A stretch of DNA of 64,000 nt from Wickerhamiella versatilis (Eukaryota): NCBI GenBank assembly GCA_030867685.1, contig JAQOWU010000007.1:806001-870000 (forward strand), read 5' to 3'. Of this stretch, positions 1,524-63,639 are shown piece after piece (position 1 is the stretch's first letter; the number at the start of each line of letters is the position of its first letter). The notes below the pieces were generated by a model. The model worked only from the letters and a program-made list of their open reading frames with translations. It was not told where the DNA came from and searched no databases. Position numbers and translations under genes: made by a program.

Positions 1524-1598
1524 CTGAAAATTCTTCTGACTAATCGCAGACGACGACCGCGACGTTACGTTCATCAACCCGTTGAATCCCCGGGTCGA

Positions 1599-1808
1599 AT
1601 GCCGCCCTTAGTGGATTATAGCTCAGACGACTCGGAGGACTGCGGTTGTGAAAATTTCAAATGGAGCATTGTGCCCAGCTCGCCACTAAAATGTCACATT
1701 CATGGTCATGACTTGATAGCATTATACCACTATCAGCAGCAGCTAACACAGGGTAAACGTTCGGTAAACCACGGGGTTGCCAACCCGCAAAAAAAGCGAC
1801 GAAGATAA
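1599..1808 (+). CDS. Possible small nuclear protein (LVDYSSDDSED N-terminus, PQKKRRR NLS-like C-terminus)
   Basis: 69-aa ATG ORF divergent from COA3. The acidic start resembles the N-terminus of Usb1-like proteins, but no catalytic HxS motifs are present. Confidence 0.3.
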   Translation: MPPLVDYSSDDSEDCGCENFKWSIVPSSPLKCHIHGHDLIALYHYQQQLTQGKRSVNHGVANPQKKRRR

Positions 1809-2032
1809 AGGTCCACTGTTGCATATACCAGCATACACCGTTCGGCGTCCACCTGGGTTTGTTCATGTTCCAATGTGCTGTTTGGTCATCTTGATTGGAG
1901 ATACATCGCATTAAGTCAATTTAAGTTGTCTAGAACTAGGTAAATGCTAGTTTGCTTCTCTATGTCTATTGTGTGTCTTCTATACGACTACTATGTAAGT
2001 ATGCGTTGAATAAGTAAGTTTCAGAAGGCTCT

Positions 2033-3571
2033 CTATAGTGTGAGAGGAAGCAAAAATCTTTTATCGGAAAGTGAGCTTTCAAAAGATTTAACCAGATCGA
2101 ATTCAGTGGTCGTTTTCCGCGAAGCAGATAGATCTTCTGGATGACAGCGCTTTCTATTATTACTTCCCAGACGTCTTCGAAAAGGACGTGACGAATCATC
2201 GCCGCCTTGCGTGGGGAAAAGTTTGGCCTCCACATGTTCCTGATAGTATCGACGCAGCGAAGGGTTAATCTGAATATTCTTGACACCCAGGTTAATCTCG
2301 TATTCGACTTTTATAAGACGTTCCTCACGCAAGTGCCGAGATGTAATTTGGTGACACTTCTTTGGATTTTCACCTATGTCCTGAAGCTCATTTGTGGTCG
2401 ACTTGCGGACTTTGCCCAGCTTATCTTTTAGTTCACGCTCTAAGTTCCTTTCAAAATTTCCGAAGGCAACGTCAATTTTGTCCTCAGCGTCCTGTAATTC
2501 CTCCACTCTATCAGCATGACGGCTCCGAATGTGGCGTAAAAGACCATCGTGACGCGAGAAAAAAAGAGGACAGAGGCGGCATGTATGAGAAAAGGAATGA
2601 TGCTTTTTTGCCATATGGTTCTGTAATTCCTTAGCACTTGAAAAGCCAATAGTAGCCATAGGGCAGTTATCATCTATACAATGAAATTTGTTCGCACCCA
2701 ATGCCTTGTGCTTCGAAATAGCATGAGCCAATTCCTGCAACAGCGTGGAGTAAAGCACGTTGCATCGATCCTCGCCACACTTAGAAGATGCCTTTTTCGC
2801 ACGACTGAAAGCTAACAGCTGGGGTCGCGATGCAATCTTATTTATGACAGTGAACATCGCAGTGTCGAAAGTGCTAGTGGTTTTTTTTTCTGACTTCACA
2901 GGGCTCGGAGGATCTATAGAGACGTTAAATTGAACGTCATTGGTGGGGGGAGTGGAAGGTCGAGACGTGTCAACTGAGATGGCTGCGGTACTTTTTGCCA
3001 CGCTCTGATCGGAAAAAGGAGTCGACGGCCGGGACAGCATCGAGGAACCGTCCATGATATCATAAACATCGGGGAGCTGTTGATTGACCCAGTTGGGATC
3101 CGTAACCCATGGGGTCACGCCTGTAGAATACGGCTTTATTGCTTTGGCGGCTGAGATATTAAGCAATACTGAGGGTCCAACCGACTGAATAGGATTCCCG
3201 TCACCAAACAGGGGAGATTCTTGCTCGGGGGACGGGAGGGAATCCACGTCAGTCTCCGGTGAAAATACCTCGTGGTCAAGCGAACTGTACAGAGGGAATC
3301 CCAGGTTGGGAATGTCAATGCTAGGGATGATTGTAGGCTCCTGTGGAACAAGGGGAGCTGCCAGTGCATCTGCGGGCCAACCTAATGCAGCCGGTCCCTG
3401 AGTATCATACTGGCTGCTCAGCATGAAGGAATATGAATTGCCCGGCTCCGTCTTCCCATTGGAGACTTCTGTGCCGCTTAAGCCTGGTGTGGCACTGTCA
3501 AAGTAGTTCATCATCCGTATCTTCCAGTCAAGAAGTGCAGAGTTGCTGATATCTTTACGTCCGACATTCAT
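2033..3571 (-). CDS. C2H2 zinc-finger transcription factor, Rme1-like
   Basis: Three C2H2-type fingers (KCGEDRC..., FHCIDDNCPMATIGF..ELQNHMAKKH, TCRLCPLFFSRHDGLLRHIRSRH) after an acidic/Pro-rich region, with 1.4 kb of upstream intergenic DNA. The finger pattern resembles Rme1. Confidence 0.7.
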   Translation of the reverse strand: MNVGRKDISNSALLDWKIRMMNYFDSATPGLSGTEVSNGKTEPGNSYSFMLSSQYDTQGPAALGWPADALAAPLVPQEPTIIPSIDIPNLGFPLYSSLDHEVFSPETDVDSLPSPEQESPLFGDGNPIQSVGPSVLLNISAAKAIKPYSTGVTPWVTDPNWVNQQLPDVYDIMDGSSMLSRPSTPFSDQSVAKSTAAISVDTSRPSTPPTNDVQFNVSIDPPSPVKSEKKTTSTFDTAMFTVINKIASRPQLLAFSRAKKASSKCGEDRCNVLYSTLLQELAHAISKHKALGANKFHCIDDNCPMATIGFSSAKELQNHMAKKHHSFSHTCRLCPLFFSRHDGLLRHIRSRHADRVEELQDAEDKIDVAFGNFERNLERELKDKLGKVRKSTTNELQDIGENPKKCHQITSRHLREERLIKVEYEINLGVKNIQINPSLRRYYQEHVEAKLFPTQGGDDSSRPFRRRLGSNNRKRCHPEDLSASRKTTTEFDLVKSFESSLSDKRFLLPLTL

Positions 3572-4975
3572 TGTCAGGAAGATATAGATTTCTTATTCAG
3601 GTGGGATATCGGTAAGGCACTTAACTGTGACCCGTTACCTGGGAGATGATGCTAATGCGTGCTGATGATGATGCAGTAAATCATCGATAAGCTTATTGCT
3701 TGGTTCTGGAAACCCTCTGAACCCCAAAAAAAAGGCTTATTATATTCAAAGTATGGGTTATCTAGGATAATTCTATCTTGTATCCAAATTTATGGGCGAT
3801 AAATGTCCCAGTCCAAATGTGAAGTCGGATAATCACACCACTCGTGTATAAGGGTTTTCTGCGTGGCTCATGCAACCAACCTCGTTAATGCCAGTATGTG
3901 GGGTGCGTTTTGCAGAGTTCTTCTTGACAAAATCATTCTATGTTTCTAGGCTAAATAAAATCGAGTCTGGTTTCCCCCAAAATAATACTGACTTCTCCTA
4001 TCCCGGGCATCGGGACTTTAAAAAGAGCGGTCATACGACCATTTATCAACGCGGAATTAAGATATCATGATAAACAAAACCTATATTTCGCAAGTTTTAT
4101 TGAAACTTCTACCGATTTGCATCCACCTTTCCTATGCCCGACCAGGTCTCACATGCGCCCACTGGGTTATGAAAGCCGATTGTAATCCAGGCCCTGCTGA
4201 ACATTGCATGCAGCGTAGGCGACCAGTTCGGTTAGCCGAGATGACGCATCCGTAGCATGCGTGTGTGACCGGGGGTACGGTAGAACCACCAACAGGGACA
4301 CTGATCCGATTCGTCCAGAATATATGCTCTTAATATTAAATATACACAATGTTTTGCTTTCAGCCCATGGATCACCATATTTGTCATTAGCAACACGCAA
4401 CACGCCCGCATAGCTTTGCTTACGCAAAAAGCTTTGAAACCGACTAGATAGCATTCCTAGCCGCAGCCTACATATCGGTTGCCTAGGCGACACTTCCCTC
4501 AGCCCAGTTTGCGGCTTTGTTTTGGACAATACCCCACTCATAGCGGACCAGCGCTGGACGACCAGACTAATATATGAATTCAAAAAGCTATGTGATAATA
4601 TGAGTGACTCTTATTGGAATTAAGGGCAGGACACATTTGTCGGCTTACCCTCGGACATAGGCCGAATAGTAGCGCACATATCTGAGACAAGTCAGGGCAA
4701 GGGCACGCATTGTAGCACCGACGACAATCACCGGATCACGTGAAAATGCTTAAAAGTCAATTGGATGGTTTAGTGCCTGGGTTTCATCCTATAATACGCG
4801 AATCGCTCGTCTGACAGATCTTCAATTGTTGATCCTATGTGATCTTCACTTTTCCCCCGCCCAGTTATTATTTGGTTTCCCCACATTGATGGAAGGACAC
4901 TAGATCGTGGTATTTAAATATCTTAAGGCTGGTGGTGAATGCTACATGTTGAATAGAGGCCCTACTGCCAGCTAG

Positions 4976-6100
4976 TTACAGCTTAATATCCTTGAAGCCC
5001 CACTTCTCGGTTTGCTTCCGCCGAGAACGTCTACGTTTCTGGGGCATGCGTGCTTCTACAAGTCCCCGAGCTTGCAGACTGCGAAGGCGCTCCTTAAAAA
5101 GGTTTCCTTCACCCCGTACACGCCTTAGTGAATCGTCCAACTCATCAGACAGCTTGATAGCCAAGGGCTGATTGATTACTGGATGTCCCGAGTGGGCCTT
5201 ATTTAGTTTTCTGGGCCCCTTGGGCCTTGGCGCTTCCGACGCCGACGCCTGTAAGGCCGGTGTAGGTTGATAAAGTGAGCGACTCTTCTCTTTCAGCCGT
5301 CTTTGAAGCTCCAGACGCTGTAAGTGGCGTCGTTGCTTGTTGATTTGGGCACGGGTTTTCCGTCTTTCTGAGGCTGGTGGATTCACGGATAAGCGGCCCA
5401 ATTCGCTCTCCTCAGTCTCTATATCTGATTCCTCAGTCTCAGAAGCTTCTGGCGAGGGTTGCGCCATCAATTCTTCTATGCGAGTCTGCTCCGCTTCACG
5501 CTTAATACGAGCATTTTCCTCCTTTGAATACTTCTTTTGCTCCTCAGCGAGTGAAGCCTTCCACTCAGAGAGTTCTGGGTTATATGAGCGGCCACCGTCA
5601 GGAACCTCCACGGCCTCTGCGTCAGGCAAGGGAGGCTGCGGCGGGGCAGGCCGCTTGGTCACAACCGGTGCCTCTTCCTCATCTCCCCATAAATCCTTGG
5701 GGCCCGTTGACTTCACGAGGCCATCACGGGCTATTTGCGCTTGCAGCTTAGCTGCTGGGCTCTCGAATCCAGCAATCTTCTTAAGCAGTTCCTTGTCAAC
5801 CTTTTTTCGTGGCTTCTCCTGCTTTTTCTGATGGATTGATGGGATCACAGGGACAGCACTTCTCTTATTCAATATTTCATCGGATTTAAGTCTTTTCTCC
5901 TCCCGCATCTCGCGACTTAAATCATTGCTACTTCCCTTGACATCGATTTCAAACAGTGGAGCAGGTCCAAGGACAATTTCCTTCTCTCTGTTTGCCTCCA
6001 GATCCTGCTCTATATCATCAAGGTCAATATTCTTTCGCCATGACTTTTTGCCCTTACGACTCTTCTGCGCCGGTTGGGCTGGCCTTCCCATAGAAGCCAT
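4976..6100 (-). CDS. NOP53: 60S ribosome biogenesis protein Nop53
   Basis: SRKGKKSWRKNID, LFEID (Mtr4 AIM motif), SYNP, L.DSLRR..EGNLF and EKW.FKD motifs. Confidence 0.93.
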   Translation of the reverse strand: MASMGRPAQPAQKSRKGKKSWRKNIDLDDIEQDLEANREKEIVLGPAPLFEIDVKGSSNDLSREMREEKRLKSDEILNKRSAVPVIPSIHQKKQEKPRKKVDKELLKKIAGFESPAAKLQAQIARDGLVKSTGPKDLWGDEEEAPVVTKRPAPPQPPLPDAEAVEVPDGGRSYNPELSEWKASLAEEQKKYSKEENARIKREAEQTRIEELMAQPSPEASETEESDIETEESELGRLSVNPPASERRKTRAQINKQRRHLQRLELQRRLKEKSRSLYQPTPALQASASEAPRPKGPRKLNKAHSGHPVINQPLAIKLSDELDDSLRRVRGEGNLFKERLRSLQARGLVEARMPQKRRRSRRKQTEKWGFKDIKL

Positions 6101-6196
6101 TTTTTTTGCCCAAATACAATGAGAAAAAATTACGTAATATTATGAACTATATACAATGTAGTACGTAGCGGTCGTTATTCATGATATTGTGCCTTG

Positions 6197-6778
6197 CTAG
6201 TCGCTTTTAGCATCTTTAGAAGAGCTTTTATGTTTCTTATGCTTCTTCTTGGATATTTTAGCCCCGTCCTTCTTGGCTGAAAGTGATCCATCGTTGTGAC
6301 TTTTATCCTTCTTGGCCTTCTTAGCCTTCTTTGGCTTTTTCTCCTTGCTCGATTTCCGACGGTGGTGCTTAGATTCCTCACCATTTTCTGACTTAGTGCT
6401 ACTGTCAGCGCTGGAGCTTTTTTTGCGCTTGTCTTTGACCTTAACGCTGTCAGATGATGGTTTCTCAGGTGGGGACGATTCTATGGTTCCGGCTAAAACT
6501 TCACCAGGGAGAAACATTGCATATAGCGGAGACACAGCTTTTCTACGTGCTTCCTCGTCGACTGTAATATTCACCCCACTAGACCCCGAGGAAACGTCTA
6601 ATGTTTTTAGGTGGCCGTCAAAAACACGTTCCCACCATGCGTCCGAGGCGTGGGGCTTAAATCCAAGCCCGCGATTATCTTTGCGATGCTTCAGCAGGAG
6701 TGGCTTTCGAAGAGAGCCCGGTTTCAGGCCCTCTCCTTTCTTCCAGCCGAGACTCTGAAGATATTTTTCGGGGTCCAT
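6197..6778 (-). CDS. TMA23: G-patch-like nucleolar protein Tma23
   Basis: YLQSLGWKKGEGL, GLG, WWERVFDGHLK motifs and a Lys-rich tail. Confidence 0.85.
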   Translation of the reverse strand: MDPEKYLQSLGWKKGEGLKPGSLRKPLLLKHRKDNRGLGFKPHASDAWWERVFDGHLKTLDVSSGSSGVNITVDEEARRKAVSPLYAMFLPGEVLAGTIESSPPEKPSSDSVKVKDKRKKSSSADSSTKSENGEESKHHRRKSSKEKKPKKAKKAKKDKSHNDGSLSAKKDGAKISKKKHKKHKSSSKDAKSD

Positions 6779-6807
6779 TTCTTCGGCCTCGGGGTTACGT
6801 TATATGT

Positions 6808-8574
6808 ATGAATGAGGAGGAATGGCTTACAGCTATTGACACGGCATCCAACCCCTTAACGGTTGCCCGTGAGGCTTGTGAGGACTGTCCCAGCGCCCGG
6901 GTATGGTGCCGTCGACTGGCTATTGAGCCGAACCTTGAAGTCGCTAAGGAAGGACTGGAGGCGACTCGAGGATGGATTGACCAGTCATTCGCGTATGCTT
7001 GTGAAGTATTTGACTTGGTAGGGGCTGATTTTAGGGATGATGTGCTACATTTTGGGGCAAAACAGTACGAAAAACTTTTACAACCTCGCCGAAGCTGGGA
7101 AGATAGAGTTGCCAAGGATCCCTCATCACTGCTTCCCTATCTTGAGTGGGAGCTCGCAAAATATCAAACTAACGCGCGTCTGGACTTTTGTCGGCCTCTA
7201 TTTGAGAGAATTCTAACGCGTGAGAAAGGAACACCGGAGCTATGGTTGAGATATATACGGCATGAATGGGTTGATAAGCTCAGTCTCGCCGCCGTACACC
7301 TCCCTCAGCCGACCGATGCGGCCCAGTTAGGTCTGGTTCTAGTGGAACGGGCCTTGAGGAGGTTCCCTGGCGATCCGCATATTATCACGACCAAGATTCG
7401 CCTCCTTCAATCTGCACGTCGGTCATCTGACCTTATTGAAGAAATTGAGCGTATTGCAGACGCTCCGGAAGCAGTTTGTCTTCAACTATTTTCATCTCTA
7501 TGTTTTTTTGCAAGAACAGGGTCTATCGATCCAGAACCCATCGTTGACCTGTTAATTGAAAACCTGTTCCACGTGGAAAATAAAGTGATTTTAATTGATT
7601 TTATCAGAGGATTAGATTCAGAAACAGCGAATAAACAACTTCGCCGCCTTACGACACAGCGCTCGTTACCAGACCATATTTGGGCAGAGTTGATGGTCTA
7701 CCCGCCAGAATACGTGCCCATGATCTATCAACGTTACCGATCGCATGCGGACAGAGTTATTGCGAACGTCGAAAAAGCGACTCGCCACTTTTATCTTACC
7801 GAGGGTTGGGCTGCTGCTCTTGAAAAACAGCAACCGATCTGGGACTCGTTGCAGTATAAAAAGCAAACAGAACCTTTGCTAAAAAGCGGTTCTATGCCCG
7901 CCAAATGGTCTTTACTCATCTCTGGCATCTCAGAAAAAATATTAAGCCCACTAAAACCATCGCGTACCTTCGACACAGTTTCTGTTCTGGAATTCAATAG
8001 CCCTTCATCGAAGGAGAAGGCACGAGACCGATTGGCTATATATGGTCAGGTGTGGGATGGTGCGGGTACAGTAGTAAAGTGTGAAGGGGAAGAGCATCCT
8101 AAAAACGTTCTTGGAACTTTCAGACTAGGCCATCAGCTTTTTGCACAGTTTCGTGATGCTCGGCAAGCTAATGGAGGCCCCGTTATATGGCCCCAGCAAT
8201 TCGACGTGTCTATATCCGATATGGGGCAGGACCCCTCAATATTGGCACAATGGTGTCCACAAATCACTGAATATGTTGCAAAGCGAGGCGGTCGAATGAT
8301 TTATGCTTCGTTTCCTACATTGGCCTTGGCTAAAGAAGCTACCGACATCCTCATCAGTAAATCATTGCATGCACGACTAATGCTGCCGCGCGAGCGAACA
8401 GTAGTAGTTAAAGGTCCGGAATTTACCTACGAAGATGCTAAACTATGGGGAGCAGTGGAAACCTTTGAGGTGGATAGTTCGTCGTGGGTAGTTATTTACG
8501 GCACTCAGCCTATGGCAGCTCGGGCAATACTAGGTATCAATGGCTCGAAGGGTTTGGTCGCTAAAAGTCCCTAA
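6808..8574 (+). CDS. HAT-repeat/RRM protein, Prp24/SART3-like (divergent)
   Basis: HAT-like repeats (YLEWE..RPLFERIL..PELWLRYI..ERALRRFP) followed by degenerate RRM-like segments. First in-frame ATG at 6808. Confidence 0.6.
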   Translation: MNEEEWLTAIDTASNPLTVAREACEDCPSARVWCRRLAIEPNLEVAKEGLEATRGWIDQSFAYACEVFDLVGADFRDDVLHFGAKQYEKLLQPRRSWEDRVAKDPSSLLPYLEWELAKYQTNARLDFCRPLFERILTREKGTPELWLRYIRHEWVDKLSLAAVHLPQPTDAAQLGLVLVERALRRFPGDPHIITTKIRLLQSARRSSDLIEEIERIADAPEAVCLQLFSSLCFFARTGSIDPEPIVDLLIENLFHVENKVILIDFIRGLDSETANKQLRRLTTQRSLPDHIWAELMVYPPEYVPMIYQRYRSHADRVIANVEKATRHFYLTEGWAAALEKQQPIWDSLQYKKQTEPLLKSGSMPAKWSLLISGISEKILSPLKPSRTFDTVSVLEFNSPSSKEKARDRLAIYGQVWDGAGTVVKCEGEEHPKNVLGTFRLGHQLFAQFRDARQANGGPVIWPQQFDVSISDMGQDPSILAQWCPQITEYVAKRGGRMIYASFPTLALAKEATDILISKSLHARLMLPRERTVVVKGPEFTYEDAKLWGAVETFEVDSSSWVVIYGTQPMAARAILGINGSKGLVAKSP

Positions 8575-8696
8575 TTGATACAAGAATGGTGAAGTTGTTG
8601 CACTCTATGCCGGGAACCATGATTTTTTAATCTGCAAGAAGATAGTATTTATATTTTTAAGATACAAACAAGTTTAATGATAGGATCTCGGTAGCA

Positions 8697-8790
8697 CCCA
8701 TGTTGATTGGCCATCTCATAGCTACGGTCATCCCTCAACGACTCCTTTTGAAGCTTCCAACGTTTGTCTCACTCTTTGGCTGTCTGAGGA
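8697..8790 (+). ncRNA. Candidate box C/D snoRNA, SNORD53/U53-like
   Basis: C-like box ATGTTGA at 8700-8706 and D box CTGA at 8784-8787. The D box is preceded by TCTTTGGCTGT, complementary (with G:U pairs) to conserved LSU rRNA ACAGCCAAGGG. Confidence 0.55.
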
Positions 8791-8991
8791 TTTGGGTTTT
8801 TGTGAGGCCTAATTAAACATTAGAAATACCCACTCATTGGCCCGCAAAATCAGCCCAATCAGATCATTTACATATAATATTTTTTTGTTTTCCGGAATCT
8901 TTAATTAATTTTGTTATTAAAAAAAACTACTAAATATTAATTCTTAGTCTCGGGATAAATTAAGACTGTTATATTAAAAGACCTAGACAAG

Positions 8992-9828
8992 TTATGTGCT
9001 TTTCTGGTTTTCCCAGACCATGCGCTGGCTGAAACTCATTCGTTCGGGGCTTATTGCAAAAGGATCAATTTCTTCCGGTATACTTTCACGTGTATCGATG
9101 TTCCTCCTCATATGACCCGTTGAAATGTCAATGGGTAAGGACCCAACGTATCCTTGCTCCTGGGGACTCGCAATTTCCGGCGCTGAACTCAATTCAGGAC
9201 TGGACTTCTCTGGGGTTGACCTCTCGCTTTTATGGGCCTCGTCATCTTCGTGAGTTATGAGATCATCAAATGAAAATATAGGATCGGAGCCTATTACGGC
9301 CTTGTCTGGTTTTATTGGTACATTCGCAAGATCATGCTTTGGTTTTGCTACAAATGGTGCGTGATGATAGACAACCGACTCCGGTTCGTCCTCTGGTGGC
9401 AATGTGTGTTCTGATGAGTCGGAATCGGAATCGGAATCCTTTGATCCCTTAACATGCCCCTCATCCTCATTATCATCTGTTTCAAATACCTCTACTTGCG
9501 GTGGAGAATCAGAAAATGAGACGCGTTTTTCAGAGGATCCAGAGGAATGATGCTTCACAATTGATTTGAGTTTCGGTTTTAGAGCCGCCTTTTCCTCAGA
9601 CCGGCGGACATTATCTCTCCAAGCCACAAGCTCAGCATGCTTGCGTATCTCAGATTCAGCAAAAGACTCCAGTTCATTCACCCTTCGATCTACGAACGAT
9701 TGAACTTGCTCCACGACAGGCTTCTGGACTTCTGGTGGAGACTCCTCTAGATGCTGCCGAAGAGTAGGTGGCAACTGATCCCATAACGCATAAGCTGATG
9801 GACCATTGCCGCCGCCACCAACCGTCAT
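8992..9828 (-). CDS. Hypothetical protein with coiled coil, KLKSIVK and KRVSF (PP1-docking-like) motifs, acidic tail
   Basis: Long ORF with first ATG at 9828. RVxF motif seen; no family recognised. Confidence 0.7.
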   Translation of the reverse strand: MTVGGGGNGPSAYALWDQLPPTLRQHLEESPPEVQKPVVEQVQSFVDRRVNELESFAESEIRKHAELVAWRDNVRRSEEKAALKPKLKSIVKHHSSGSSEKRVSFSDSPPQVEVFETDDNEDEGHVKGSKDSDSDSDSSEHTLPPEDEPESVVYHHAPFVAKPKHDLANVPIKPDKAVIGSDPIFSFDDLITHEDDEAHKSERSTPEKSSPELSSAPEIASPQEQGYVGSLPIDISTGHMRRNIDTRESIPEEIDPFAISPERMSFSQRMVWENQKST

Positions 9829-9930
9829 GCACCACGGTGATTTCGATATTCGATTACGAAAGAGCTGATAGCACACATTATCGATATTAGGGTTTCTGGG
9901 TCTAGCCAACTGAAACGAGACAAACAACAG

Positions 9931-11445
9931 ATGCTTTCCGTATGGCCGTTGATTGCATTGCTGTTCTTCGTGCTGATTGCTGAGGGTGCACCCTACAAGT
10001 ATGGCTGCCCGTCGTATGAACTTTGGAGTAAGCTAAGGAATCAACCAGTCTCAGGTGGGCCTCTTCGACTACCAATGCAACGCCCATCATATAATTGTAG
10101 GACATTCATTTCTTCGTCCGTTGAAAAGATGTTGAAAGAAGTGTCAAAAGACATTCTTGACACAGATACTGCCCGAATATTCGAGAATGCATATCCTAAC
10201 ACACTAGATACAACCATTAAGTGGCACCAACGAGCTCCAAATCCTTTAACTTTTATTGTCACGGGTGACATCAATGCTGAGTGGCTTCGTGACTCCTACC
10301 GTCAACTCTCTGTATATATTCCGTTGTGCTCCAAGGAGGAGGCACTTCGTGACCTTATTCTAGGAGCCATTGCCCTTCAAGCACAATACGTCATTGAGTC
10401 ACCCTTCTGTAATGCATTTCAGCCACCACGTACTTCTGATTTAAGGGCTCCACCTCCTTCAAATGCCGAGGACAACGTCTGGCCCCCTGTAAATCCAGAA
10501 GTAGTCTTCGAATGTAAATTCGAAATAGACTCTCTAGCGGCATTTCTTGGACTTAGCCGCGAGTATTATCAGGCAACAAAGGATAAATCATTCGTAACTC
10601 CAGAATGGAGGTCTGCATTGGCTCGTATTCTGTATGTAGTAGAGACCATGAGCCTTCCAACCTATAATGAGACAACGAGTGAAGTTCTGGCACCGGCCTA
10701 TACGTTCCAGCGAAACACAGATTTGGGTACAGAAACAATCCCCTTGAAAGGTTGGGGATATCCTGTTCGCTATACGGGTATGGTGCGATCATGGTTTCGA
10801 CCTAGTGACGACGCCACGATCTATCAATTTTTTGTTCCTGGTAACGCTGAGATGGCTGTAGAATTAGAGGCAGTCAAAACTTACGTGGATTCATGGCTCT
10901 CTGGGCGTGCATCAGAAGCCGCGACCGAAATTAGAAAAGGAATAATGGAACATGCAATATTTGAGCACCCAAAGTACGGTAGGGTATTCGCATATGAGGT
11001 GGATGGCTATGGGGGGAGAAATTTTATGGATGATGCCAACTTGCCATCGCTGTTAAGCCTCCCTGATCTTGGGTTCTGCAGCGCTGATGATGAAGTTTAC
11101 AAAAATACTAGGCGCATGGTATTGGATCCCTCGTCAAATCCATTCTACTATCGTGGGCCATATTTCGAAGGAATCGGTGGACCGCATGCTGGAATACGTG
11201 CGGCATGGCCCATGTCTCGTATTGTTGCCATTAGGACCACGAACTCATTGGATGAGATTAGATCACATCTTCGTGCTGTGGTGAATTCGACACGAGGATT
11301 GGGACTGATTCATGAGACAGTTAATGTGGACACGAACGATTTCTCAAGACCTTGGTTCAGCTGGGCCAACTCAGAGTTTGCCAAAACTATCATAAATTTA
11401 AAGGAACGAGGTCTCCTGCAACGTGCAACGAAAGATTTGCTTTAA
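9931..11445 (+). CDS. Secreted glycoside hydrolase family 125 (exo-alpha-1,6-mannosidase-like)
   Basis: Signal peptide, NAYPNTLDTT, TGDINAEWLRDS, ECKFEIDSL, FRPSDDA, MDDANLPSLL and RPWFSWANSEF motifs. Confidence 0.92.
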   Translation: MLSVWPLIALLFFVLIAEGAPYKYGCPSYELWSKLRNQPVSGGPLRLPMQRPSYNCRTFISSSVEKMLKEVSKDILDTDTARIFENAYPNTLDTTIKWHQRAPNPLTFIVTGDINAEWLRDSYRQLSVYIPLCSKEEALRDLILGAIALQAQYVIESPFCNAFQPPRTSDLRAPPPSNAEDNVWPPVNPEVVFECKFEIDSLAAFLGLSREYYQATKDKSFVTPEWRSALARILYVVETMSLPTYNETTSEVLAPAYTFQRNTDLGTETIPLKGWGYPVRYTGMVRSWFRPSDDATIYQFFVPGNAEMAVELEAVKTYVDSWLSGRASEAATEIRKGIMEHAIFEHPKYGRVFAYEVDGYGGRNFMDDANLPSLLSLPDLGFCSADDEVYKNTRRMVLDPSSNPFYYRGPYFEGIGGPHAGIRAAWPMSRIVAIRTTNSLDEIRSHLRAVVNSTRGLGLIHETVNVDTNDFSRPWFSWANSEFAKTIINLKERGLLQRATKDLL

Positions 11446-11553
11446 ATAAAAGCACGCGCAGACACACAGACACTCAGAAGTACATATACATCATTATTAT
11501 AGAGTTCTTAGATAGGTTTTTAAGTAGGCCTAATATTTCATTTAGCCTCGAGC

Positions 11554-12603
11554 TTAGTTTCCAAGCGAACGCTCGATTTCTCGAGTCTCCCCCTGCGTCC
11601 GGCGCAGTGCTTCCTGATACCTGTGTTGGATTCCTTCCGAATCCTCCTGCTCCTGCTCTTCCAATTCATCAGAATCGTCATCAGCTTCTCCATCGTCAGA
11701 AAAATCACTCAATACATCACCCGACCCAGCCTTATCGACACCAACGTCTCGAAGAAGCTTTTCCAAGTCCTTCGCCTTACGCTCAGCATCCTTTTCCTCG
11801 CGAAGCCTTCGCACTCGCTCTTTCTCTGCTTCATACTCCACTTCGAACTCAACCTTCTTTCTCTGAACCGCCTCAAGTAAATCCGGGATTCCCTGACCAG
11901 TCAGGGAGGAGACAGAAACAACATCAAGCGTATTATAGAACTCTTCCAAAACAAGTGACATGGAGGACATGAGAGATCCCATGTAGCCGCTGCCATTTTC
12001 ATCATCATCTAAGTTTAGGGCCTTCTGGAAAGCTTCGAAGTCCGTCATCCATTCTTTTGCAAAATCAGCATTCTGAGCATCAGTCTTATTGAATACAATG
12101 ATCATTGGTAGTTTTGTTTTATAGAGGATCGAACAAGCGTACAACATGTTCGACATAAATGTCGTTGGGGAAGTACATCGCGGAGTATCCACAATATATG
12201 CGATCATGGTTGGGAAGGACGAAGCCAAAGAGTCCATGATTATTTGGCCCGAGGCACTCCAAATGAAGCATTCAATCTGACCTGGTGTGTCAATAAGCAC
12301 ATGCTCAAATTGTGGAGCTCGCTTCTCAAGGATGCCTATGATTTGGTCAACTTTCGTGGAAAATAAATTAAGACTTGTCATAATGGCACCATTAGGACCC
12401 AGCCCATAGTCCTCCATTACCTTGTGGTAGTTGACAGAGTCCCGGATGTCTATATTGGGCCCGTACGGTGTATCGTTAACGGCAGGATCTAGATTAATCA
12501 CATAAGGAGGCCGTTTCTGTGCATGCAGCTCAGAGTTTAGACGTTGCATGAACGTCGTTTTGCCAGCACCAGCCATGCCAATGCATAGTATTGTAGCGAC
12601 CAT
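11554..12603 (-). CDS. NPA3: GPN-loop GTPase 1
   Basis: [10 protein letters not shown]-loop, NLDPA, LGPNGAI and DTPGQIE motifs. ATG at 12603. Confidence 0.95.
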
Positions 12604-12620
12604 TTTTAACCTGATGACTA

Positions 12621-13223
12621 ATGGTGGTCTTGGTTCCTTCTGTATCGATTGGCAATGTGCCACAGCTTGCGGTCGACCTTTTGCTATCTACCTATGATGA
12701 ATTTGAATTAGTTAAATGTCTGGATGATGAATATTTGAGCCCCTTCGCTGGACCTCGAGACTTTACCGAGGGCCCACAACCGAAAGGAGTGGCCACAGCA
12801 GCTCAACTTTATCGCAAAGGAGATATATATATCGTACAACTACGGTCACCTGTGCTACCTTTTCAGAAGCATAATTTTGCTGAACAGCTTAAAAAAGAAT
12901 TGCCCTCTGATGACGTATTGATTGTCAGCTCTGCCAATGCCGGGGCCAGAATCCAGCAGGGCCTTCCTTTACTCACGATATCCAAACCAAATGAGCCCTT
13001 GCAAGATTCAGGATTTACCCAGGAAGCTTTGGAGTGTTTTAAATGCGAAGCGGTAGTGCTCTACACTTATGAAGGTGATAACATTGAAGATGCTCGACAA
13101 TTAGCTCAAGTACTAGTGGGAAAACTAGGGCTTGAGCCACGCCAGTTTAAAACCCCTGTTAGCTGGAGACACATATACGGAAAAGACGTGCCCCTAGGAC
13201 TGGAACAAGGTATCTACACGTAA
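12621..13223 (+). CDS. Proteasome assembly chaperone 2 (PAC2/Pba2 family)
   Basis: [22 protein letters not shown] and P.SW..IYG motifs. Confidence 0.88.
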
Positions 13224-13243
13224 AGGTTTTTTTGTTTCCGAAA

Positions 13244-13993
13244 TTAATCGTCATCAAGGACGCGCTTCACAACGTTGCTAAGAATACATTTATTGCGCAT
13301 GATATCCAGTTGGTCGGCTTCCGACTCGAAAATCTTCTTTTTATCAACGTTGGGGGCAAAAGCAGGTGGACCTGTAGCAGTTGGTGCGGAAGATGCATTT
13401 TGCTCGCCAAGGATTAGAGTAAACAGACTTTGTAGCCCAATAAGTAGGATAATATACCATGATATGCTACTAACCCACCGGACATCAAGATCAGGAGTGG
13501 TGATACCAGCCTGGAGCATCTCTTTGAAGCGGCTGGTTAGTGGGAATGGTAGCTTCATCACGATGAATCCACCAAAGAAAGCAGAGATCCAGCTCATTAT
13601 AACGGTTTGGGGGATAAATGTCAACATTTGCTGCTTCACTCCGGCAGTCATGTTTTCCATTTGCTTAGGGTCACTTAGGTTGGGCATTGCACTTTGCTGC
13701 GGTTTGGCCTCTGGGTCTGCGAGAAACGCTCCCTTGCGGTACCCTTGAACCAGATACTGCACTCGGCTAGAAAAGCTTGTCTCATCCAAATTAAACCCAT
13801 TTACACGGATCAATCGTCCGAGCTGCATATAGCTTGCTTCCCGAAGCTCTTTGATACCCATTTGAGGAGGTTCAGGCGCCAAAAGCATGGTAGCAAAATG
13901 TCTGATCACGCCAACAAGAACCATAACAATAAGAACTGGGAATAGCACCCATGTTTGCAGGCTCGGGTCCAGGATAAGGTCTGGCACAGCCAT
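13244..13993 (-). CDS. EMC3: ER membrane complex subunit 3
   Basis: LDPSLQTWVLFP, KLPFPLT.RFKEMLQ and DVRWVSSISWY motifs. Confidence 0.95.
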   Translation of the reverse strand: MAVPDLILDPSLQTWVLFPVLIVMVLVGVIRHFATMLLAPEPPQMGIKELREASYMQLGRLIRVNGFNLDETSFSSRVQYLVQGYRKGAFLADPEAKPQQSAMPNLSDPKQMENMTAGVKQQMLTFIPQTVIMSWISAFFGGFIVMKLPFPLTSRFKEMLQAGITTPDLDVRWVSSISWYIILLIGLQSLFTLILGEQNASSAPTATGPPAFAPNVDKKKIFESEADQLDIMRNKCILSNVVKRVLDDD

Positions 13994-14402
13994 GGCAGTT
14001 GCTTACGTAGTTACTGATCAGTAGTGTAATAGTGCCTGGTAAATTTCAGTAGAGTAGCACCAAGAGTATCACATTGCAACAAGAAAGGCATTAGAGCAAT
14101 CAAGATAATAGGCAGAAAGTATCGTAGCTATCATTTCACTTGGGATATTTTCTTATGGGCCGCATAGCTTAATGCCGTGTAGCATCGAGTGAATTTACTT
14201 TATTCTACGAGCATCAGCCAAATGAAGAGATTTATGGAACAGACAGTAGATGCGGATAATTATTAAAGTGGCATCACGAACAAATTCCCTTTATCGTGTA
14301 CACACGTGACTTTCCTTTTCGAGTCGCTATCCTACCTCATGGGGTGGGGGGCTGTTTAACGCTCTTCAAAACCGAAGGAAGCTCAAACCCTTTGCAATAT
14401 CT

Positions 14403-15014: not shown

Positions 15015-15147
15015 TCTACCCGAATTAACAATGTATATATAAAGCAGATCCTAGAAAATTTGCATTTTTTTTAAGTACTGCCATTCTGGTAGGGCATCTC
15101 GCTCTTAGCATTGATTTGAGGGATCTAAGGTTTGTCTTATGCAAAAT

Positions 15148-16800: not shown

Positions 16801-16900
16801 CGTGGGATTAATAATTACGTCAAATTCACTATGTACTTAGGCCAGTTCCAGTGCGGACTGACTTTATTCTTTTTTTTCGTTATATAAAATGCGGTATGCC

Positions 16901-48200: not shown

Positions 48201-48763
48201 AACAATTATGAAAATATTTGAAATTCACAATAATTTCTAGTGACTAGAATCCCTCAGACCCTCAGATCCAGACGGCGCTAGTCAGGGTAGGGGTAGGGTG
48301 CTTAAAGATGGCGTTACGTCTGTGCCTGTACCTAAGACATTTCATTCGAGTGGGAATATCGCACAGGTAGCTATCAGTAGTAACAAGAGACTTAAATAAA
48401 ATAAATTTGGGGTATTATTTCTTTTTGCCACCAAAATTGCAGTCCGTAGGGTGCAGGCTCATATGCCTCAAATGCAAACCAGCATGATCATGATAACCCT
48501 CGCCCTATGCCTGCAGTCGTATATGGATCGCCATTTGATCAGCCCCAATTCTTCAGTGATAATTAAAAGATTTGAATAAAAAATAACAATAGCTACTCAG
48601 AAAACTTTTTTTGGTTGCCAGTGCTCTTCTTAAGCACATTTGATGGAGCATGGGACCTGCCCTTTGTAGCGCCGTGTGCGTTGAGATTTTTTACTAATTA
48701 TCCTATTAAAGAAAGAAGAACATAACCTCACCAGCTAACATTAAACTGTCAATAGTCAAATTT

Positions 48764-50737: not shown

Positions 50738-51790
50738 ACTAATATCACAAGTTTTCTCGTAACTGGAAATCTTTTCAATGGATTATCGATATCTCTTAAT
50801 TTTGTAACTAAAGTTATCCTCGTTTTGTGCTTACTTGTGTAGTTTCTCATTGTTCGATCGAAAACAAATTTGAGATTATACACAATAACAAGGCATTTCA
50901 GGAAAGGCAAGCTCCCAAATTTTATACTTACGCACATATTATGACCTGTAACGTCATTACTAGTGTGTAAGCTATAATCCTGCAATGACGGGCTTTCCGA
51001 AGGACGGATGCGCGAATAAATAATTTCTATGTTGATACATGTAGTCAAGTTTGAGGAATCTTTGCATTTGAAACAAACTGTCAATCTATATATTTCTCAA
51101 AATAAAACTCGGATGACTTTGTTGGTTTAGGCTAATTGATCGGCGCGTGGTTCCAAGCCCTTGCCCAGAACTTCCAATTCAGATACGTCCGCGATTTCGC
51201 TATAATCCCGCCGTAGAGTCGGCCAAAAAGAGCACGAAAGGGACTTGAAATTACATATATATAGAATCAGAACCTAGTTGAAAAGCCATCATAAAGACCT
51301 ACTCCCGAGATTCAGATGCTCTTTGTTACAAACAATTCTCAAGGGCACGGGCCAAGGTGGGTATATCTATGGTGCTGCCAAGGGATGGCTCCCCTGTGAG
51401 AATAAAGTCGAAATCGATAAGCTGTTGAACACTAAATTAAGAACTACGAGACGAATGAGCAATACATTATACGCAGAAAAAAAATCAATAAGATGGCACA
51501 CCACTATTCACAAGTCATTAGGTAACACGATCTGGACATCAGGTGTATCAGGATACCGGTTAAAGTGCGGTGACGTCGATCATTAGAAAACCTATATGAG
51601 AGAAAGCGGTAAAAAACAGAATCATCCTCTTGATTGGCCAATCAAGACACTAATGCTCGTTAACCCCGGATACCAACCTGCTTACCAGAGTACGGCCCGA
51701 ACATAATATAACACTACCTGCATAAATACAGAATTTTTTACTAATTTACTATTAAAGGGCCCGAGGCGCTCGTGATTTACTGTATCACAT

Positions 51791-55932: not shown

Positions 55933-56337
55933 CTATGGCAGTCGATATTTCCTGCTGGATAGATAGATTGATGCCATAATTAAAGCAGATATGGCAGCAT
56001 ACATAGGATAAAGAAGTACAAATCCCAAGGCAAGAAGCAGCTTGGCCGTGGCCATGACGCGCTCACTTTGACGAACACGTTTAGCCCAACTAAGAAGGAC
56101 CAGGCCACTAAATACAGTCACTTCTGCAATAACCACAGGCAAGTTAGTGTTTATATTTTGTGCCTGCTGTGCTAAGGTACTCAATTCTGACGTGAGCTCA
56201 GATGGTTTAGGCTTGTCAGTGGTATTATCCGAGTTTTGCGGAGGGCTTGGCTGAGGCATTTCTAGTTTCACTGGCGCATTCTGATGCACAGAATTCCTAT
56301 TAGGATTTGCGCGCCGCAACGCACCCGGATACATCAT
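55933..56337 (-). CDS. Hypothetical membrane protein (start uncertain)
   Basis: 134-aa ORF with a polar N-terminal half and 2-3 hydrophobic C-terminal segments. Confidence 0.5.
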   Translation of the reverse strand: MMYPGALRRANPNRNSVHQNAPVKLEMPQPSPPQNSDNTTDKPKPSELTSELSTLAQQAQNINTNLPVVIAEVTVFSGLVLLSWAKRVRQSERVMATAKLLLALGFVLLYPMYAAISALIMASIYLSSRKYRLP

Positions 56338-56345
56338 ATGTATAC

Positions 56346-56813
56346 TTAGCCGGACGAAGGAGCAGTTAGGAGGATGAGTCCAACGGGCACGATGATGTAC
56401 CAGTACTTCTGGAAAAATCCTTTTTCAGGCTCAATTTCAGTCTTCTCTCCCTCCTTCACAGGGGCTTTCAGCAACGGACGAGGCACAGGGCTCGAGCGGG
56501 GACCCCACACGATCGCTGATGTGTTGCCGAATTCATCTGCACGAGGCTCAAAGCGAATTTCTCCCCTTAGAGCTTCCCTAGCTGTAATTTTGTCACATTT
56601 TCCTTCAAAGAGAGTATGGCATTCAAACTCCTTATTGTCCCGAATGACGCCGAGGCACGCTGGTGTCCCACTGGTCTCGACAACAGCAGATGGCTTCCAT
56701 TCAATATCAAGCCCATCAACAATCGCGTTTCCTATCTGCACCAATTCATTTCCATCCTGTACAGCAAGTTGGTACTGCACAGCTGCGACTGCAGCTAGGA
56801 TCCATAGAAGCAT
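56346..56813 (-). CDS. ER membrane complex subunit 10-like type I membrane protein
   Basis: Signal peptide MLLWILAAVAA from ATG 56813, P.P.L motif, EKGFFQKYWYIIVP and a TM helix. Confidence 0.75.
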   Translation of the reverse strand: MLLWILAAVAAVQYQLAVQDGNELVQIGNAIVDGLDIEWKPSAVVETSGTPACLGVIRDNKEFECHTLFEGKCDKITAREALRGEIRFEPRADEFGNTSAIVWGPRSSPVPRPLLKAPVKEGEKTEIEPEKGFFQKYWYIIVPVGLILLTAPSSG

Positions 56814-57026
56814 CCTGCTTAGTGACCTGGTGTACGATGTATGTAACTTTTGGTCCCGTCGCACGAGCCAAGTTCAGATCAATGTATTGACTATGGATCC
56901 AAAACCACTCTGAACCAACTGCTATGCTTAGGGCACTTGTCCGAGTACTTCTCCGATTTTGAGCAAAAGTCACAATAGATCAGACGAGCGACAAACTTCT
57001 GTGAGTCAGCATTAACTACCAGTCCA

Positions 57027-57364
57027 ATGGTATCGCCCGTTTTCAACGTAAGTACAGCACAGGCTACAGGCTCTGTATACAGACAGCTAACAAGCAGGTT
57101 TTAAGGTGGGCCGCTCTGGCCAGTGGTGTCGTCTACGGTTTTGCTCATGACCGTACGCTAGCCTCCGAAGCTGATGAAAAGCGGAAACATGCAGCTTTCG
57201 AGAAAAAGGCAAAACTGATCGAAGAGGCTAAAGCAGAGTGGCTTAAGCTCCATCCTAAGCCTCAGGCTCCTGCATCGTCGGGTCCTGCTGAGGCTGACTT
57301 CGACGATCCTAAGTTCGATATCGTCAAATTTATTGATGCCTCGATCGAGGGACTCAAGAACTAA
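57027..57364 (+). CDS. TIM11: Mitochondrial ATP synthase subunit e, two exons (57027-57047, 57098-57364)
   Basis: 50-nt intron at 57048-57097 (GTAAGT..GCTAAC..CAG). Spliced product MVSPVFNVLRWAALASGVVYGFAHDRTL..KLIEEAKAEWLKLHP has the GxxxG motif. Missing from the ORF track. Confidence 0.92.
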
Positions 57365-58544: not shown

Positions 58545-58866
58545 GGTTTCCTGATTAGTAACTATTTTTCAAGCAGTAAATTAAATTGACATTCAGATGA
58601 AAAGGGAACCGCCAGGCTGCTGAATGTTGGTGATATCGACGCAAATGCAAATTTAAATTCTATTGACCAAATATAAGCTACCTAGCCTACATGAATTACG
58701 ATTGAAGAAAAATTAGTCACTTGCTAAGTGCTGGTTTGCTTAGCATTGCCAGAATATTGGGGGAAACTTAAGTGGCCCTTTCTGTACAATAAAGCTTCAA
58801 CGCTAGAATAAATTATTTCGAAATTCTTAAGCTATTTGAGTCAGGCTACACACTTTTCGCTTTGTC

Positions 58867-62339: not shown

Positions 62340-62434
62340 ATTACGTCTTATTAGGGTGAGTGTGAATCGCCTCACTTTCGGAAAATGTATGGATTAATAA
62401 CAGTCGCGTATATAACAATTTAACCATTAACGCC

Positions 62435-63400
62435 ATGCTTAAATGGTATCGCGTTCCTTGTGATCCACACCAAATATATTTGCCAGCGGTACTTAGGTGT
62501 GGCCAGAGTTTTCGATGGCGTCGTAATGATATCGAAGGGGGAACATGGAGCATTACCTTGGACTCACGCGTCGTCCTACTGAAACAGGACGCGAAGAATC
62601 TGTATTTCTCCAGTATTCCGGAACTTGCGTCGACTCCTGACCTGGTGAAGGACTATCTAAACCTTTCTGTGGACCTCAAGAAGCTGTGGAATGACTGGTC
62701 ATCTCGTGACAAACGGTTTGGCGAACCACGCCTGACTGGTGTGAGAATCCTCCGGCAGGATCCCTGGGAGACTCTCATTGCATTTATCTGCAGTTCTAAC
62801 AACAACATCAAAAGAATTTCGAAGATGGTGCATTCCCTTTGTCAAGAATATGGCCCCTATATTGCCGAATGGGAGGGTGAACGCTACTACGGTTTCCCAA
62901 GCCCGGCAGATCTGTTGAAACCAGAGGTTGAACAACGATTAAGGTCGCTTGGGTTTGGCTACCGGGCAAAATATATTGTACAAACTGCCAAACATATTGC
63001 GTCGATGTCCGATGGACTTACCTATCTGCATAGCTTGCGGGATGTTCCTTATGAGGAGGCTCATGCAGCTCTCACTAAATTTTCGGGTGTTGGACCAAAA
63101 GTTGCTGACTGCGTGTGCCTTATGAGCCTCGATAAACATGATGTTGTACCCGTGGATACACATATTTGGCAGATAGCTCAGCGAGACTATAAAATGCGGA
63201 TAAAAACCCAAAATGCTCGAGAATATCAACAGGTTCAGGATGCATTTAGGCGCCTATGGGGGCCACATGCCGGATGGGCCCACTCAGTGCTTTTTGCAGG
63301 TGACTTGCCAGCACTTGAGGCAATTGAGCCCCTTGTTGTCAAAAGCGAGATTGAGGAGGCTGCTGGCCCGCAAATCAAGTCCGAAGGGATTGCGGCGTAG
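62435..63400 (+). CDS. OGG1: 8-oxoguanine DNA glycosylase/lyase
   Basis: LRCGQSFRW, RILRQDPWE, SSNNNIKRI, GFGYRA, HhH GVGPKVADC, PVDTH and AGWAHSVLF motifs. Confidence 0.96.
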   Translation: MLKWYRVPCDPHQIYLPAVLRCGQSFRWRRNDIEGGTWSITLDSRVVLLKQDAKNLYFSSIPELASTPDLVKDYLNLSVDLKKLWNDWSSRDKRFGEPRLTGVRILRQDPWETLIAFICSSNNNIKRISKMVHSLCQEYGPYIAEWEGERYYGFPSPADLLKPEVEQRLRSLGFGYRAKYIVQTAKHIASMSDGLTYLHSLRDVPYEEAHAALTKFSGVGPKVADCVCLMSLDKHDVVPVDTHIWQIAQRDYKMRIKTQNAREYQQVQDAFRRLWGPHAGWAHSVLFAGDLPALEAIEPLVVKSEIEEAAGPQIKSEGIAA

Positions 63401-63639
63401 TCTACTCCGAGATTTAGATACATGTACTCTAACTTATTCCATAGTTATTTTCATATAGATCAATCCATGCATATCGGAGGAAAATGCCGCAAGCAACACA
63501 TCAGTAATATTTATCGTCGGTCAATTTCTTTGACGAAGTACTAAATAAATTGTTTCCTACTCTATTTTATGTCTGTTCTCATCGTCATCATCACACCATT
63601 TCACTTTACCATCTCAGATTACTTGATTAGTCACCGTAC

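Follow-up and report, generated by a model that had tools for sequence, protein, structure and literature searches.

How can transcription be initiated when the start codons of two divergent genes are separated by only 17 bp? This question is raised by a 64-kb stretch of Wickerhamiella versatilis DNA (contig JAQOWU010000007.1, positions 806,001 to 870,000; called the window below, with positions counted from its first letter), in which short palindromic elements of the type recognised by basic leucine zipper (bZIP) proteins are situated immediately ahead of the ATG codons of many genes with basic cellular functions. The window has a G+C content of 47%, about 77% of it is coding, and its genes are mostly intron-less; the introns that are present show GTAAGT...CTAAC...AG signals (TIM11, about 57048–57097; NOG2, about 21946–22155). 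Promoter-containing gaps between tandem genes measure 54–100 bp, and convergent stop codons are 20 bp apart. A preliminary description, made from the sequence, had suggested that a bZIP protein serves here as a general promoter factor. The answer considered in this work is that a Yap/Pap-type bZIP site operates as a bidirectional promoter element of constitutive TATA-less genes, located close to the transcription start site (TSS), and in our opinion this reading is evenly poised between acceptance and rejection.

bZIP-type dyads ahead of start codons

Pfam names most of the open reading frames (ORFs) and backs most of the gene labels proposed earlier. Matches were obtained for Nop53, ATP_bind_1/NPA3, PAC2, EMC3, CCT, Flavin_Reduct, separase C50, TBCC, SPC12, ACOX, NTF2, M1/LTA4H, His_Phos_2, Med7, OPT, EMC10, PBP/MRPL35-like, POL31 and PIF1; the match of Coa3 was weak, and the labels "TMA23/PRP24-like" and ARP9 found no support in the Pfam search. 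Searches of PDB sequences with the ORFs 6808–8574, 6197–6778 and 1599–1808 gave no match. Homologues of Nop53 identify the source as a member of the Saccharomycotina; they were found in close relatives at 99% and 75% identity, followed by twelve at 42–49%, and named yeasts reached only 33–34%. For all counts, 40 start codons were curated in the window, with COA3 taken at its second in-frame ATG and a 69-amino-acid (69-aa) ORF at 1599–1808 added.

All 18 AP-1-like or CRE-like strings that had been reported near start codons are present at the named coordinates, and in gene orientation each of them lies 0–29 nt from an ATG. The strict patterns, TKASTMA and TTACGT/ACGTAA, were counted by site centre in a zone from −1 to −35 of the ATG. 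Seventeen of the 28 noncoding strict sites fall into this zone, which comprises 1244 of the 14778 noncoding bp (8.4%), against an expectation of 2.36 (binomial p = 4.6e-12). Per kb, the zone contains 13.7 sites, other noncoding DNA 0.81 and coding DNA about 0.35. This positional enrichment, which is directly established, persists with zones of 25 and 50 bp and with a Pfam-only gene set. With the count restricted to genes having 150 bp or more of upstream DNA, 9 of 15 sites are in the zone (805 of 6114 bp, p = 2.8e-5), so the enrichment is not a by-product of tiny promoters. A strict site is found between −40 and +1 in 19 of the 40 genes, compared with 2.07 ± 1.39 (maximum 8) in 2000 dinucleotide-preserving shuffles. 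Thus, the position next to start codons is specific, as had been claimed, and the earlier estimate of chance occurrence (about one site per kb, a few percent per 35 bp) was right, with a value of 3.4%. The statement that "most housekeeping genes" carry the element is fair in view of 19 strict sites and 3 near variants at 40 starts, the term itself being subjective.

Unbiased scans lead to the same motif. When 6-mers at −1 to −40 are compared with those in other noncoding DNA, ACGTAA/TTACGT tops the list (8 versus 4, p = 1.8e-6, or about 0.004 once corrected for 2080 6-mers), and among 5-mers the top position belongs to the bZIP half-site ATTAC/GTAAT (13 in the zone, 23 elsewhere). Twenty control patterns, namely column-scrambled palindromes, patterns with a changed centre and single-base variants, several of which contain stop codons, gave 0–4 zone sites each, compared with 9 and 8 for the real patterns. 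An automatic pipeline, using the longest non-overlapping ORFs of at least 100 aa with their first ATG, found a site in 13 of 27 cases in the window and in none of 35 cases in 13 unrelated fungal contigs, which contain 115 ORFs. These contigs are the loci of at least 5 kb among 18 obtained from a metagenome scan (5 shorter ones were dropped); the 18 loci are distant, with full-length matches of at most 35% identity, and were used as a negative control only. Inside ORFs, there are 3 copies of TKASTMA, compared with 16.8 ± 4.1 after permutation of the codon order; depletion is likewise seen for the control TKAWTMA (10 versus 25.4), and TTACGT/ACGTAA shows no significant depletion (10 versus 15.0). 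The start-codon context from −6 to −1 shows no bias in genes with or without a site.

The zone sites are dyads of TTA or TGA half-sites, freely mixed, in two spacings of 7 and 8 bp. The 7-bp class, with a central C/G, includes nine distinct zone sites (five TTA/TCA hybrids, three TGASTCA and one TTASTAA), and of the 18 symmetrised positions flanking these 7-mers on the 5′ side, 14 hold A or C, in agreement with MTKASTMA, the Yap1/Cap1 consensus (PMC3111461). The 8-bp class, with a central CG, includes nine ACGT-core sites, the variant of the LTA4H-like gene being one of them, and three of the nine are full dyads (TTACGTAA once and TGACGTAA twice). Yap response elements (YREs) exist as YRE-O, with overlapping half-sites, TTA(C/G)TAA, and as YRE-A, with adjacent half-sites, TTACGTAA, and Pap1 and CgAp1 accept both half-site spacings (PMC3111461). 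Two spacings around one dyad centre are as expected of a bZIP dimer. The fit of the 7-mers to MTKASTMA, together with a fit of the 8-mers to YRE-A that is complete in both half-sites for three of nine, supports the assignment of a putative bZIP-type element, in line with the preliminary description; no data point to another reader, and a Yap-family bZIP would be the probable reader protein.

Strict sites belong to COA3, the 69-aa ORF, NOP53, two unnamed divergent genes (6778/6808), NPA3, PAC2, EMC3, the CCT gene, flavin reductase, separase, TBCC, SPC12, MED7, TIM11, the MRPL35-like gene, POL31, PIF1 and the gene at 63640, and near variants belong to the LTA4H-like gene, the NTF2-domain gene and EMC10. 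Genes without a site are mostly of the secreted or nutrient type (GH125, GH42, ACOX, acid-phosphatase-like, two GH76, OPT, GH16-like and a 1092-aa ORF); the others are a zinc-finger gene, NOG2, ArgJ, OGG1 and several unnamed ORFs. Functionally unrelated, constitutive-type genes carry the element, TATA-bearing and secreted-type genes are devoid of it, and, in accordance with the earlier observations, the POX/ACOX, phosphatase and OPT genes have no site near their ATGs. The median upstream gap is 98 bp in genes with a site versus 408 bp in genes without it (p = 0.0035). Canonical TATA boxes, at −37 (GH42), −41 (ACOX) and −26 (OGG1), were found only in genes without a site. The proposed extremely small promoters are real in the sense that three divergent pairs have ATG-to-ATG gaps of 17, 29 and 35 bp, each with exactly one site; the divergent gap of COA3 and the 69-aa ORF, counted from the ATG at 1523, is 75 bp and carries a site as well. 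The sharing of one site by two divergent genes and the occurrence of sites in both orientations are matters of direct observation.

Transcription starts and explanations of the element

Public raw RNA reads with the same species label (two studies, four runs) were aligned to positions 1200–21199. In two polyA runs, X11 and X12, the soft-clipped read ends carry a constant tail, which corresponds to the end of the SMARTer 5′-end label marking RNA 5′ ends (PMC9245221, Methods), so that template-switch junctions give mRNA 5′ ends to the base. For COA3 (minus strand), these ends are at 1537 (421 reads in X11, 196 in X12) and 1541 (49 and 25), within the element 1537–1543, with a leader of 14 nt from 1537; for the 69-aa ORF (plus strand), the end is at 1542 (36 reads in X11), within the same element, with a leader of 57 nt. 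Since all these starts are inside one element, initiation here is back-to-back and bidirectional. The flavin reductase transcript (minus strand) begins at 17418 (29 reads in X11, 24 in X12), 2 nt beyond the element 17410–17416, and its 8-nt leader consists of the element. The CCT transcript (minus strand) begins at 16803 (23 reads in X12), 12 bp downstream of the element 16815–16822, with a leader of 3 nt. Thus, very short 5′ untranslated regions, which had been postulated earlier, were observed at single-base resolution in three genes (14, 8 and 3 nt). The sequence just upstream of the 5′ ends is unlike the GGG end of the adapter, which makes a strand-invasion artefact unlikely. Because the CCT element is untranscribed and the COA3 element is transcribed only in its last base, the element acts at the DNA level.

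The two random-primed runs show pile-ups of fragment ends 16–19, 17, 17 and 25 nt inside the four exact ends. Standard second-strand synthesis loses the extreme 5′ end, and this would be the cause of the offset. Pile-ups corrected by about 17 nt provide five further estimates, namely about 6123 for NOP53 (pile-up at 6106), about 6809 for the gene at 6808 (6826), about 12612 for PAC2 (12629), about 13989 for EMC3 (13972) and about 21114 for NOG2, a gene without a site (21131). All five estimated starts are at most about 26 nt from the ATG, and the four of genes with a site are at most about 17 bp from it. Over the 20 kb of 1200–21199 no spliced joints were seen in RNA, so there are no hidden leader exons. 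The motif precedes COA3 only if translation begins at the second in-frame ATG, with its A at 1523; the RNA 5′ ends at 1537 and 1541 indicate that this ATG, not the first one, is used.

According to the proposed mechanism, a dimeric bZIP of the fungal AP-1 (Yap/Pap) type would bind the 7-bp or 8-bp dyad, and one dyad 0–30 bp ahead of the ATG would mark the promoter of a constitutive TATA-less gene. RNA polymerase II would start about −6 to +17 bp from the dyad centre, on either or both strands, at nearby pyrimidine–purine steps; one site could serve two divergent genes with ATGs 17–35 bp apart, and the resulting mRNAs would have leaders of a few nucleotides. The bZIP would probably nucleate or position the initiation complex, perhaps keeping the spot nucleosome-free, and would not be a conditional activator. 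In a more far-reaching form, which we can put forward only tentatively, a Yap-family bZIP might have come to define the promoters of about half of the genes, where a lone TATA-less dyad without an upstream region would recruit the machinery bidirectionally and fix starts within about 15 bp, giving promoters of 17–35 bp between coding sequences and near-leaderless mRNAs (3–14 nt) translated without conventional scanning. The element does not behave as an initiator of fixed register, and its frequency and the functional variety of its genes are too great for a regulon.

Several circumstances weigh against this interpretation. The spacing between TSS and motif is not fixed, which is unusual for a polymerase-positioning factor, and classical yeast activators do not have their sites over the TSS. 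Six of the nine ACGT-core sites are not full dyads and consist of one perfect half-site plus ACGT. Avoidance of the motif in ORFs is partly common to the TKAWTMA control and hence does not discriminate. The site at 34907 may equally be an ordinary Gcn4-type site for ArgJ, 131 bp off. All counts come from one 64-kb window with 40 starts, and the RNA comes from another strain, 95–99% alike to the window, i.e. 1–5% different. Exact 5′ ends concern four transcripts among the best-supported rows, in addition to which a further 135 loose-end and 177 begin/end rows exist, and the five remaining starts are estimates, not exact positions.

Other explanations of the same facts should be weighed. The element might be an initiator-like core sequence read by the basal machinery (TFIID, TFIIB or RNA polymerase II) instead of a bZIP, its TCA ends being outward-facing initiators. 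The 5′ ends at the site of COA3 and the 69-aa ORF are the last A of TTAGTCA and, on the other strand, the A in position 6 of the motif; each of the four exact starts is an A preceded by a pyrimidine or allows this reading; and 8 of 11 7-mers end in TCA in gene orientation, with a G following in 5 of those. However, the register varies from motif position 7 and position 6 of the other strand to 2 nt upstream (flavin reductase) and 12 bp downstream (CCT), and dyad symmetry, two half-site spacings and the top 5-mer ATTAC, which are hallmarks of bZIP dimers (PMC3111461), are left unexplained, so that an initiator seems unlikely to us. Ordinary condition-specific sites (for Yap1 in oxidative stress, Gcn4 in amino-acid control or Atf/Sko1 in stress), which would be close to ATGs only through tiny promoters, are suggested by sequences identical to known Yap, Gcn4 and CRE sites, by the many promoters shorter than 100 bp, by the position of TGAGTCA 34907, 131 bp from the arginine-biosynthesis gene ArgJ, and by the flavin reductase and LTA4-hydrolase-like genes, which could be stress genes. 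Nevertheless, 19 of 40 genes are far too many for a regulon, and their functions (ribosome biogenesis, chaperonin, separase, Mediator, DNA polymerase delta, signal peptidase, EMC and mitochondrial ribosome) are unrelated housekeeping ones, which together with the location of sites at the TSS does not correspond to a Yap stress regulon. The three TGASTCA zone sites adjoin MED7, TIM11 and POL31, and only ArgJ fits a Gcn4 regulon. Moreover, in genes with 150–400 bp of upstream DNA the sites are still at most 35 bp from the ATG (9 of 15, p = 2.8e-5), and 5′ ends in or beside sites are not compatible with the position of an upstream activating site (UAS); this explanation is therefore considered rather improbable.

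A different role is suggested by Reb1 and Rap1, which act as polymerase roadblocks in S. cerevisiae: the bound factor could be a roadblock or insulator stopping read-through from the upstream gene without driving initiation. The very tight spacing of genes (54–100 bp in tandem and 20 bp between convergent stops) and the location of the site at the edge of transcription units favour this role, but divergent pairs, which have no upstream gene reading in, carry the site as often (gaps of 17, 29, 35 and 75 bp), and we regard it as very improbable. A function at the RNA level, where the element in a short leader would help translation from a cap-proximal AUG, is reminiscent of the translation initiator of short 5′ untranslated regions (TISU), one element that can serve both transcription and short-leader translation (PMC2518114). 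In flavin reductase and probably in PAC2, the 8–9-nt leader is the element, its last A being the A of the AUG. On the other hand, the CCT element is wholly upstream of the 5′ end, that of COA3 has only its last base transcribed, both orientations occur, divergent genes share a site, and the ATG is anywhere between 0 and 29 nt away; there is hardly any probability left for such a function. Chance or an artefact of counting, finally, is the least probable explanation of all and has been largely refuted. It could be argued that the choice of two families of patterns, of near variants and of a permissive distance had been made after seeing the data, or that stop-rich motifs, which contain TGA/TAA and are depleted in ORFs, are forced to lie beside first ATGs defined by ORFs. 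Yet the unbiased k-mer scan recovers the motif, same-letter control patterns, stop-containing ones included, give 0–4 sites, other fungal contigs give 0 of 35 with the identical pipeline, and the independent RNA 5′ ends coincide with sites.

Individual sites and neighbouring features

The leftmost site, TGACTAA at 1537–1543, is common to COA3 (minus strand, A of ATG at 1523) and the 69-aa ORF (plus strand, ATG at 1599), and 5′ ends lie inside it; a further site, TTACGTTC, is at 1565–1572 and precedes the start codon of this ORF by 26 nt. Five differences between the window and the RNA-source strain flank the COA3 element (at 1525, 1549–1551 and 1558), none being listed inside 1537–1543. Differences in the flanks without a change in the dyad are a hint of constraint at this single locus. 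The 69-aa ORF itself (MPPLVDYSSDDSED..., 1599–1808, plus strand), divergent from COA3 and transcribed from 1542, has no Pfam or PDB match; in the RNA-source strain it has a 3-nt insertion behind 1633 (129 of 133 reads in run X8), which is in frame and thus fits a real small protein gene. In the same part of the window, a 124-aa ORF at 4167–4541 (minus strand), with no Pfam match and no motif, has an RNA depth of 0–0.27 (bin 3868–4534, four runs) and is probably not a gene, or is silent.

NOP53 (ATG at 6100, minus strand) has the perfect YRE-A TTACGTAA at 6130–6137, 29 nt upstream of its ATG, and TTACGTTA at 6795–6802 is placed in the 29-bp gap between the divergent ATGs at 6778 (minus) and 6808 (plus). 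In the 17-bp gap between NPA3 (ATG at 12603, minus) and PAC2 (ATG at 12621, plus) there is TGACTAA at 12615–12621, the final A of which is the A of the PAC2 ATG. EMC3 (ATG at 13993, minus) is preceded at 9 nt by TTACGTAG (14003–14010), and the CCT gene (ATG at 16800, minus) at 14 nt by TTACGTCA (16815–16822), which reads TGACGTAA in gene orientation. In the polyA runs, sharp pile-ups of read starts on the plus strand at 12819–12824 and 15032–15037 look like poly(A) sites of the minus-strand EMC3 and CCT genes; read in this way, they would extend the 3′ untranslated region of EMC3 by about 420 nt into the convergent ORF of PAC2, the stops being 20 bp apart. TGAGTAA at 17410–17416 overlaps by one base the ATG of flavin reductase (A at 17410, minus). 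The separase gene (ATG at 20731, minus) has two sites upstream of its start codon, GAACGTAA at 20735–20742 (TTACGTTC in gene orientation) at a distance of 3 nt and TGAGTAA at 20751–20757 at a distance of 19 nt. TTACGTCA at 26206–26213 is found in the 35-bp gap of the divergent TBCC (ATG at 26198, minus) and SPC12 (ATG at 26234, plus) genes.

Further along, TGAGTCA at 34907–34913 is 19 nt upstream of the MED7 ATG (34887, minus) and 131 bp upstream of ArgJ (35038, plus), TGAGTCA at 57002–57008 is 18 nt upstream of the TIM11 ATG (57027, plus), and TGAGTCA at 58837–58843 is 23 nt upstream of the POL31 ATG (58867, plus). TTAGTAA at 58555–58561 lies 10 nt ahead of the MRPL35-like gene (ATG at 58544, minus), TTACGTCT at 62341–62348 (AGACGTAA in gene orientation) lies 1 nt ahead of PIF1 (ATG at 62339, minus), and TTAGTCA at 63627–63633 lies 6 nt ahead of the ATG at 63640 (plus), which belongs to the gene labelled ARP9 earlier, without Pfam support. 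The near variants are TGACGTAG at 31880–31887 (CTACGTCA in gene orientation), which precedes the LTA4H-like ATG (31878, minus) by 1 nt, TTACATAA at 28942–28949, 27 nt upstream of the ATG of the NTF2-domain gene (28977, plus), and TTAGTGA at 56819–56825, 5 nt upstream of the EMC10 ATG (56813, minus). A 134-aa ORF at 55933–56337 (minus), without a Pfam match or motif, has its ATG 8 bp downstream of the stop of EMC10 (56346–56813, minus) and may be a mis-call or a part of the EMC10 transcription unit. Intron branch points were considered as a source of TTACTAA sites and rejected: the zone sites are outside introns, 1200–21199 shows no joints, and the two copies of TTTTACTAATT at 48691 and 51738 are components of a promoter module common to two genes, which is described below.

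Some other features of the window concern genes that carry no zone site. The TATA boxes of GH42 and ACOX, at 23281–23287 and 26854–26859, are 37 and 41 bp upstream of the ATGs, and this suggests that TATA-driven genes may also have very short leaders, with a metazoan-like distance from TATA to start. The GH42 gene (23317–25368, plus strand) encodes a beta-galactosidase with all three GH42 domains; as the family is mostly bacterial, horizontal acquisition of this gene is possible. Tandem GH76 (Dfg5/Dcw1-like) paralogues of 520 aa each, at 37175–38737 and 39190–40752 (minus), have similar sequences just before the ATG (...TTACATA..CTTTTTCGGATG). Between OPT and the GH16-like gene, 3.5 kb (45274–48763) are without a called gene, which is unusual for such a dense window, and this region holds 6 of the 11 out-of-zone motif copies. 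A shared module of about 25 bp, TTTTTTACTAATT..CTATTAAAG, occurs at 48686–48712 and 51733–51759, 50–75 bp ahead of two large genes of the secreted type (GH16-like, 48764, and the 1092-aa ORF, 51791), and two copies of TTTTACTAATT, at 48691 and 51738, are part of it. With a Yap-like 7-mer beside a TATA-like box, the module is perhaps a conventional regulated promoter.

Comparison with known promoter systems

A textbook yeast promoter consists of a UAS, a nucleosome-free region kept by general regulatory factors (GRFs), a TATA or TATA-like element and a start selected by downstream scanning, with leaders of about 50 nt. In contrast to it, half of the genes of the window seemingly run from one bZIP dyad on the start site. 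If this is true, promoters of 17–35 bp would fall below the lower limit of 80–255 bp given for promoter-containing regions between coding sequences of 11 yeasts (PMC3128071), and such an architecture of promoters and translation initiation would be one that is not known to have been described in fungi. A search of the literature, with subscription journals and supplements outside its coverage, revealed no description of an AP-1/Yap-type site at yeast TSSs or start codons, and bZIP, Yap1 and Gcn4 are not mentioned in a paper on a species-aware fungal DNA language model (PMC10985990). If the arrangement is genome-wide, it would represent a natural minimal bidirectional promoter of less than 40 bp, useful in synthetic biology, a transcription factor family of the stress type rewired into a general promoter factor, and a fungal system for studying the use of cap-proximal AUGs by ribosomes. 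The motif would also be of use in annotation, since it would allow 5′ ends and start codons of this lineage to be predicted, as in COA3.

GRFs such as Rap1, Abf1, Reb1, Cbf1 and Tbf1 share with the element of the window the recurrence in many unrelated constitutive genes (here 19 of 40 starts), often in bidirectional promoters. To our knowledge, however, no known yeast GRF is a bZIP, and GRF sites lie well upstream of the TSS in a nucleosome-free region of 100–200 bp, whereas the sites of the window are on the TSS. The TSS-proximal CRE/ATF sites of mammals are also bZIP dyads (the TGACGTCA family); in TATA-less housekeeping promoters, which are often bidirectional, their positions peak sharply a short distance ahead of the TSS. 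There, the dyad cooperates with several other motifs in CpG islands, where starts are dispersed and leaders are of normal length; the element described here is apparently the single recognisable one in yeast promoters of 17–100 bp. The HomolD box (CAGTCACA) of ribosomal-protein promoters in fission yeast is likewise a short non-TATA element that defines the start of TATA-less housekeeping genes, and a part of its sequence, AGTCAC, is shared by sites like TTAGTCAC at 63627. Unlike the element of the window, HomolD is directional, occupies the TATA position about 30–40 bp upstream of the start and serves a single class of genes.

With TISU, which is read by YY1, the element has in common a place beside the start codon of genes with basic functions and very short leaders, and TISU has a transcriptional role as well (PMC2518114, PMC3177215). 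TISU contains the ATG, is downstream of the TSS and directional, and has a zinc-finger reader; the element of the window is palindromic and of different sequence, touches the ATG in 2 of 17 cases, by one base each, occurs in both orientations and, in the CCT gene, is upstream of the TSS. The greatest similarity in sequence is to the YREs of Yap1, Cap1, CgAp1 and Pap1, which are described with the same TTA/TGA half-sites, the same central C/G or CG, a 7-bp and an 8-bp form, the latter a full dyad in three of nine sites of the window, and the same A/C in the 5′ flank (PMC3111461). According to the same paper, known YREs mark a small stress or drug regulon, in contrast to the sites of the window, which are present in about half of the genes, with unrelated constitutive functions. 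In general, YREs act as upstream activating sites, whereas the sites considered here are at the TSS, 0–30 bp from the ATG.

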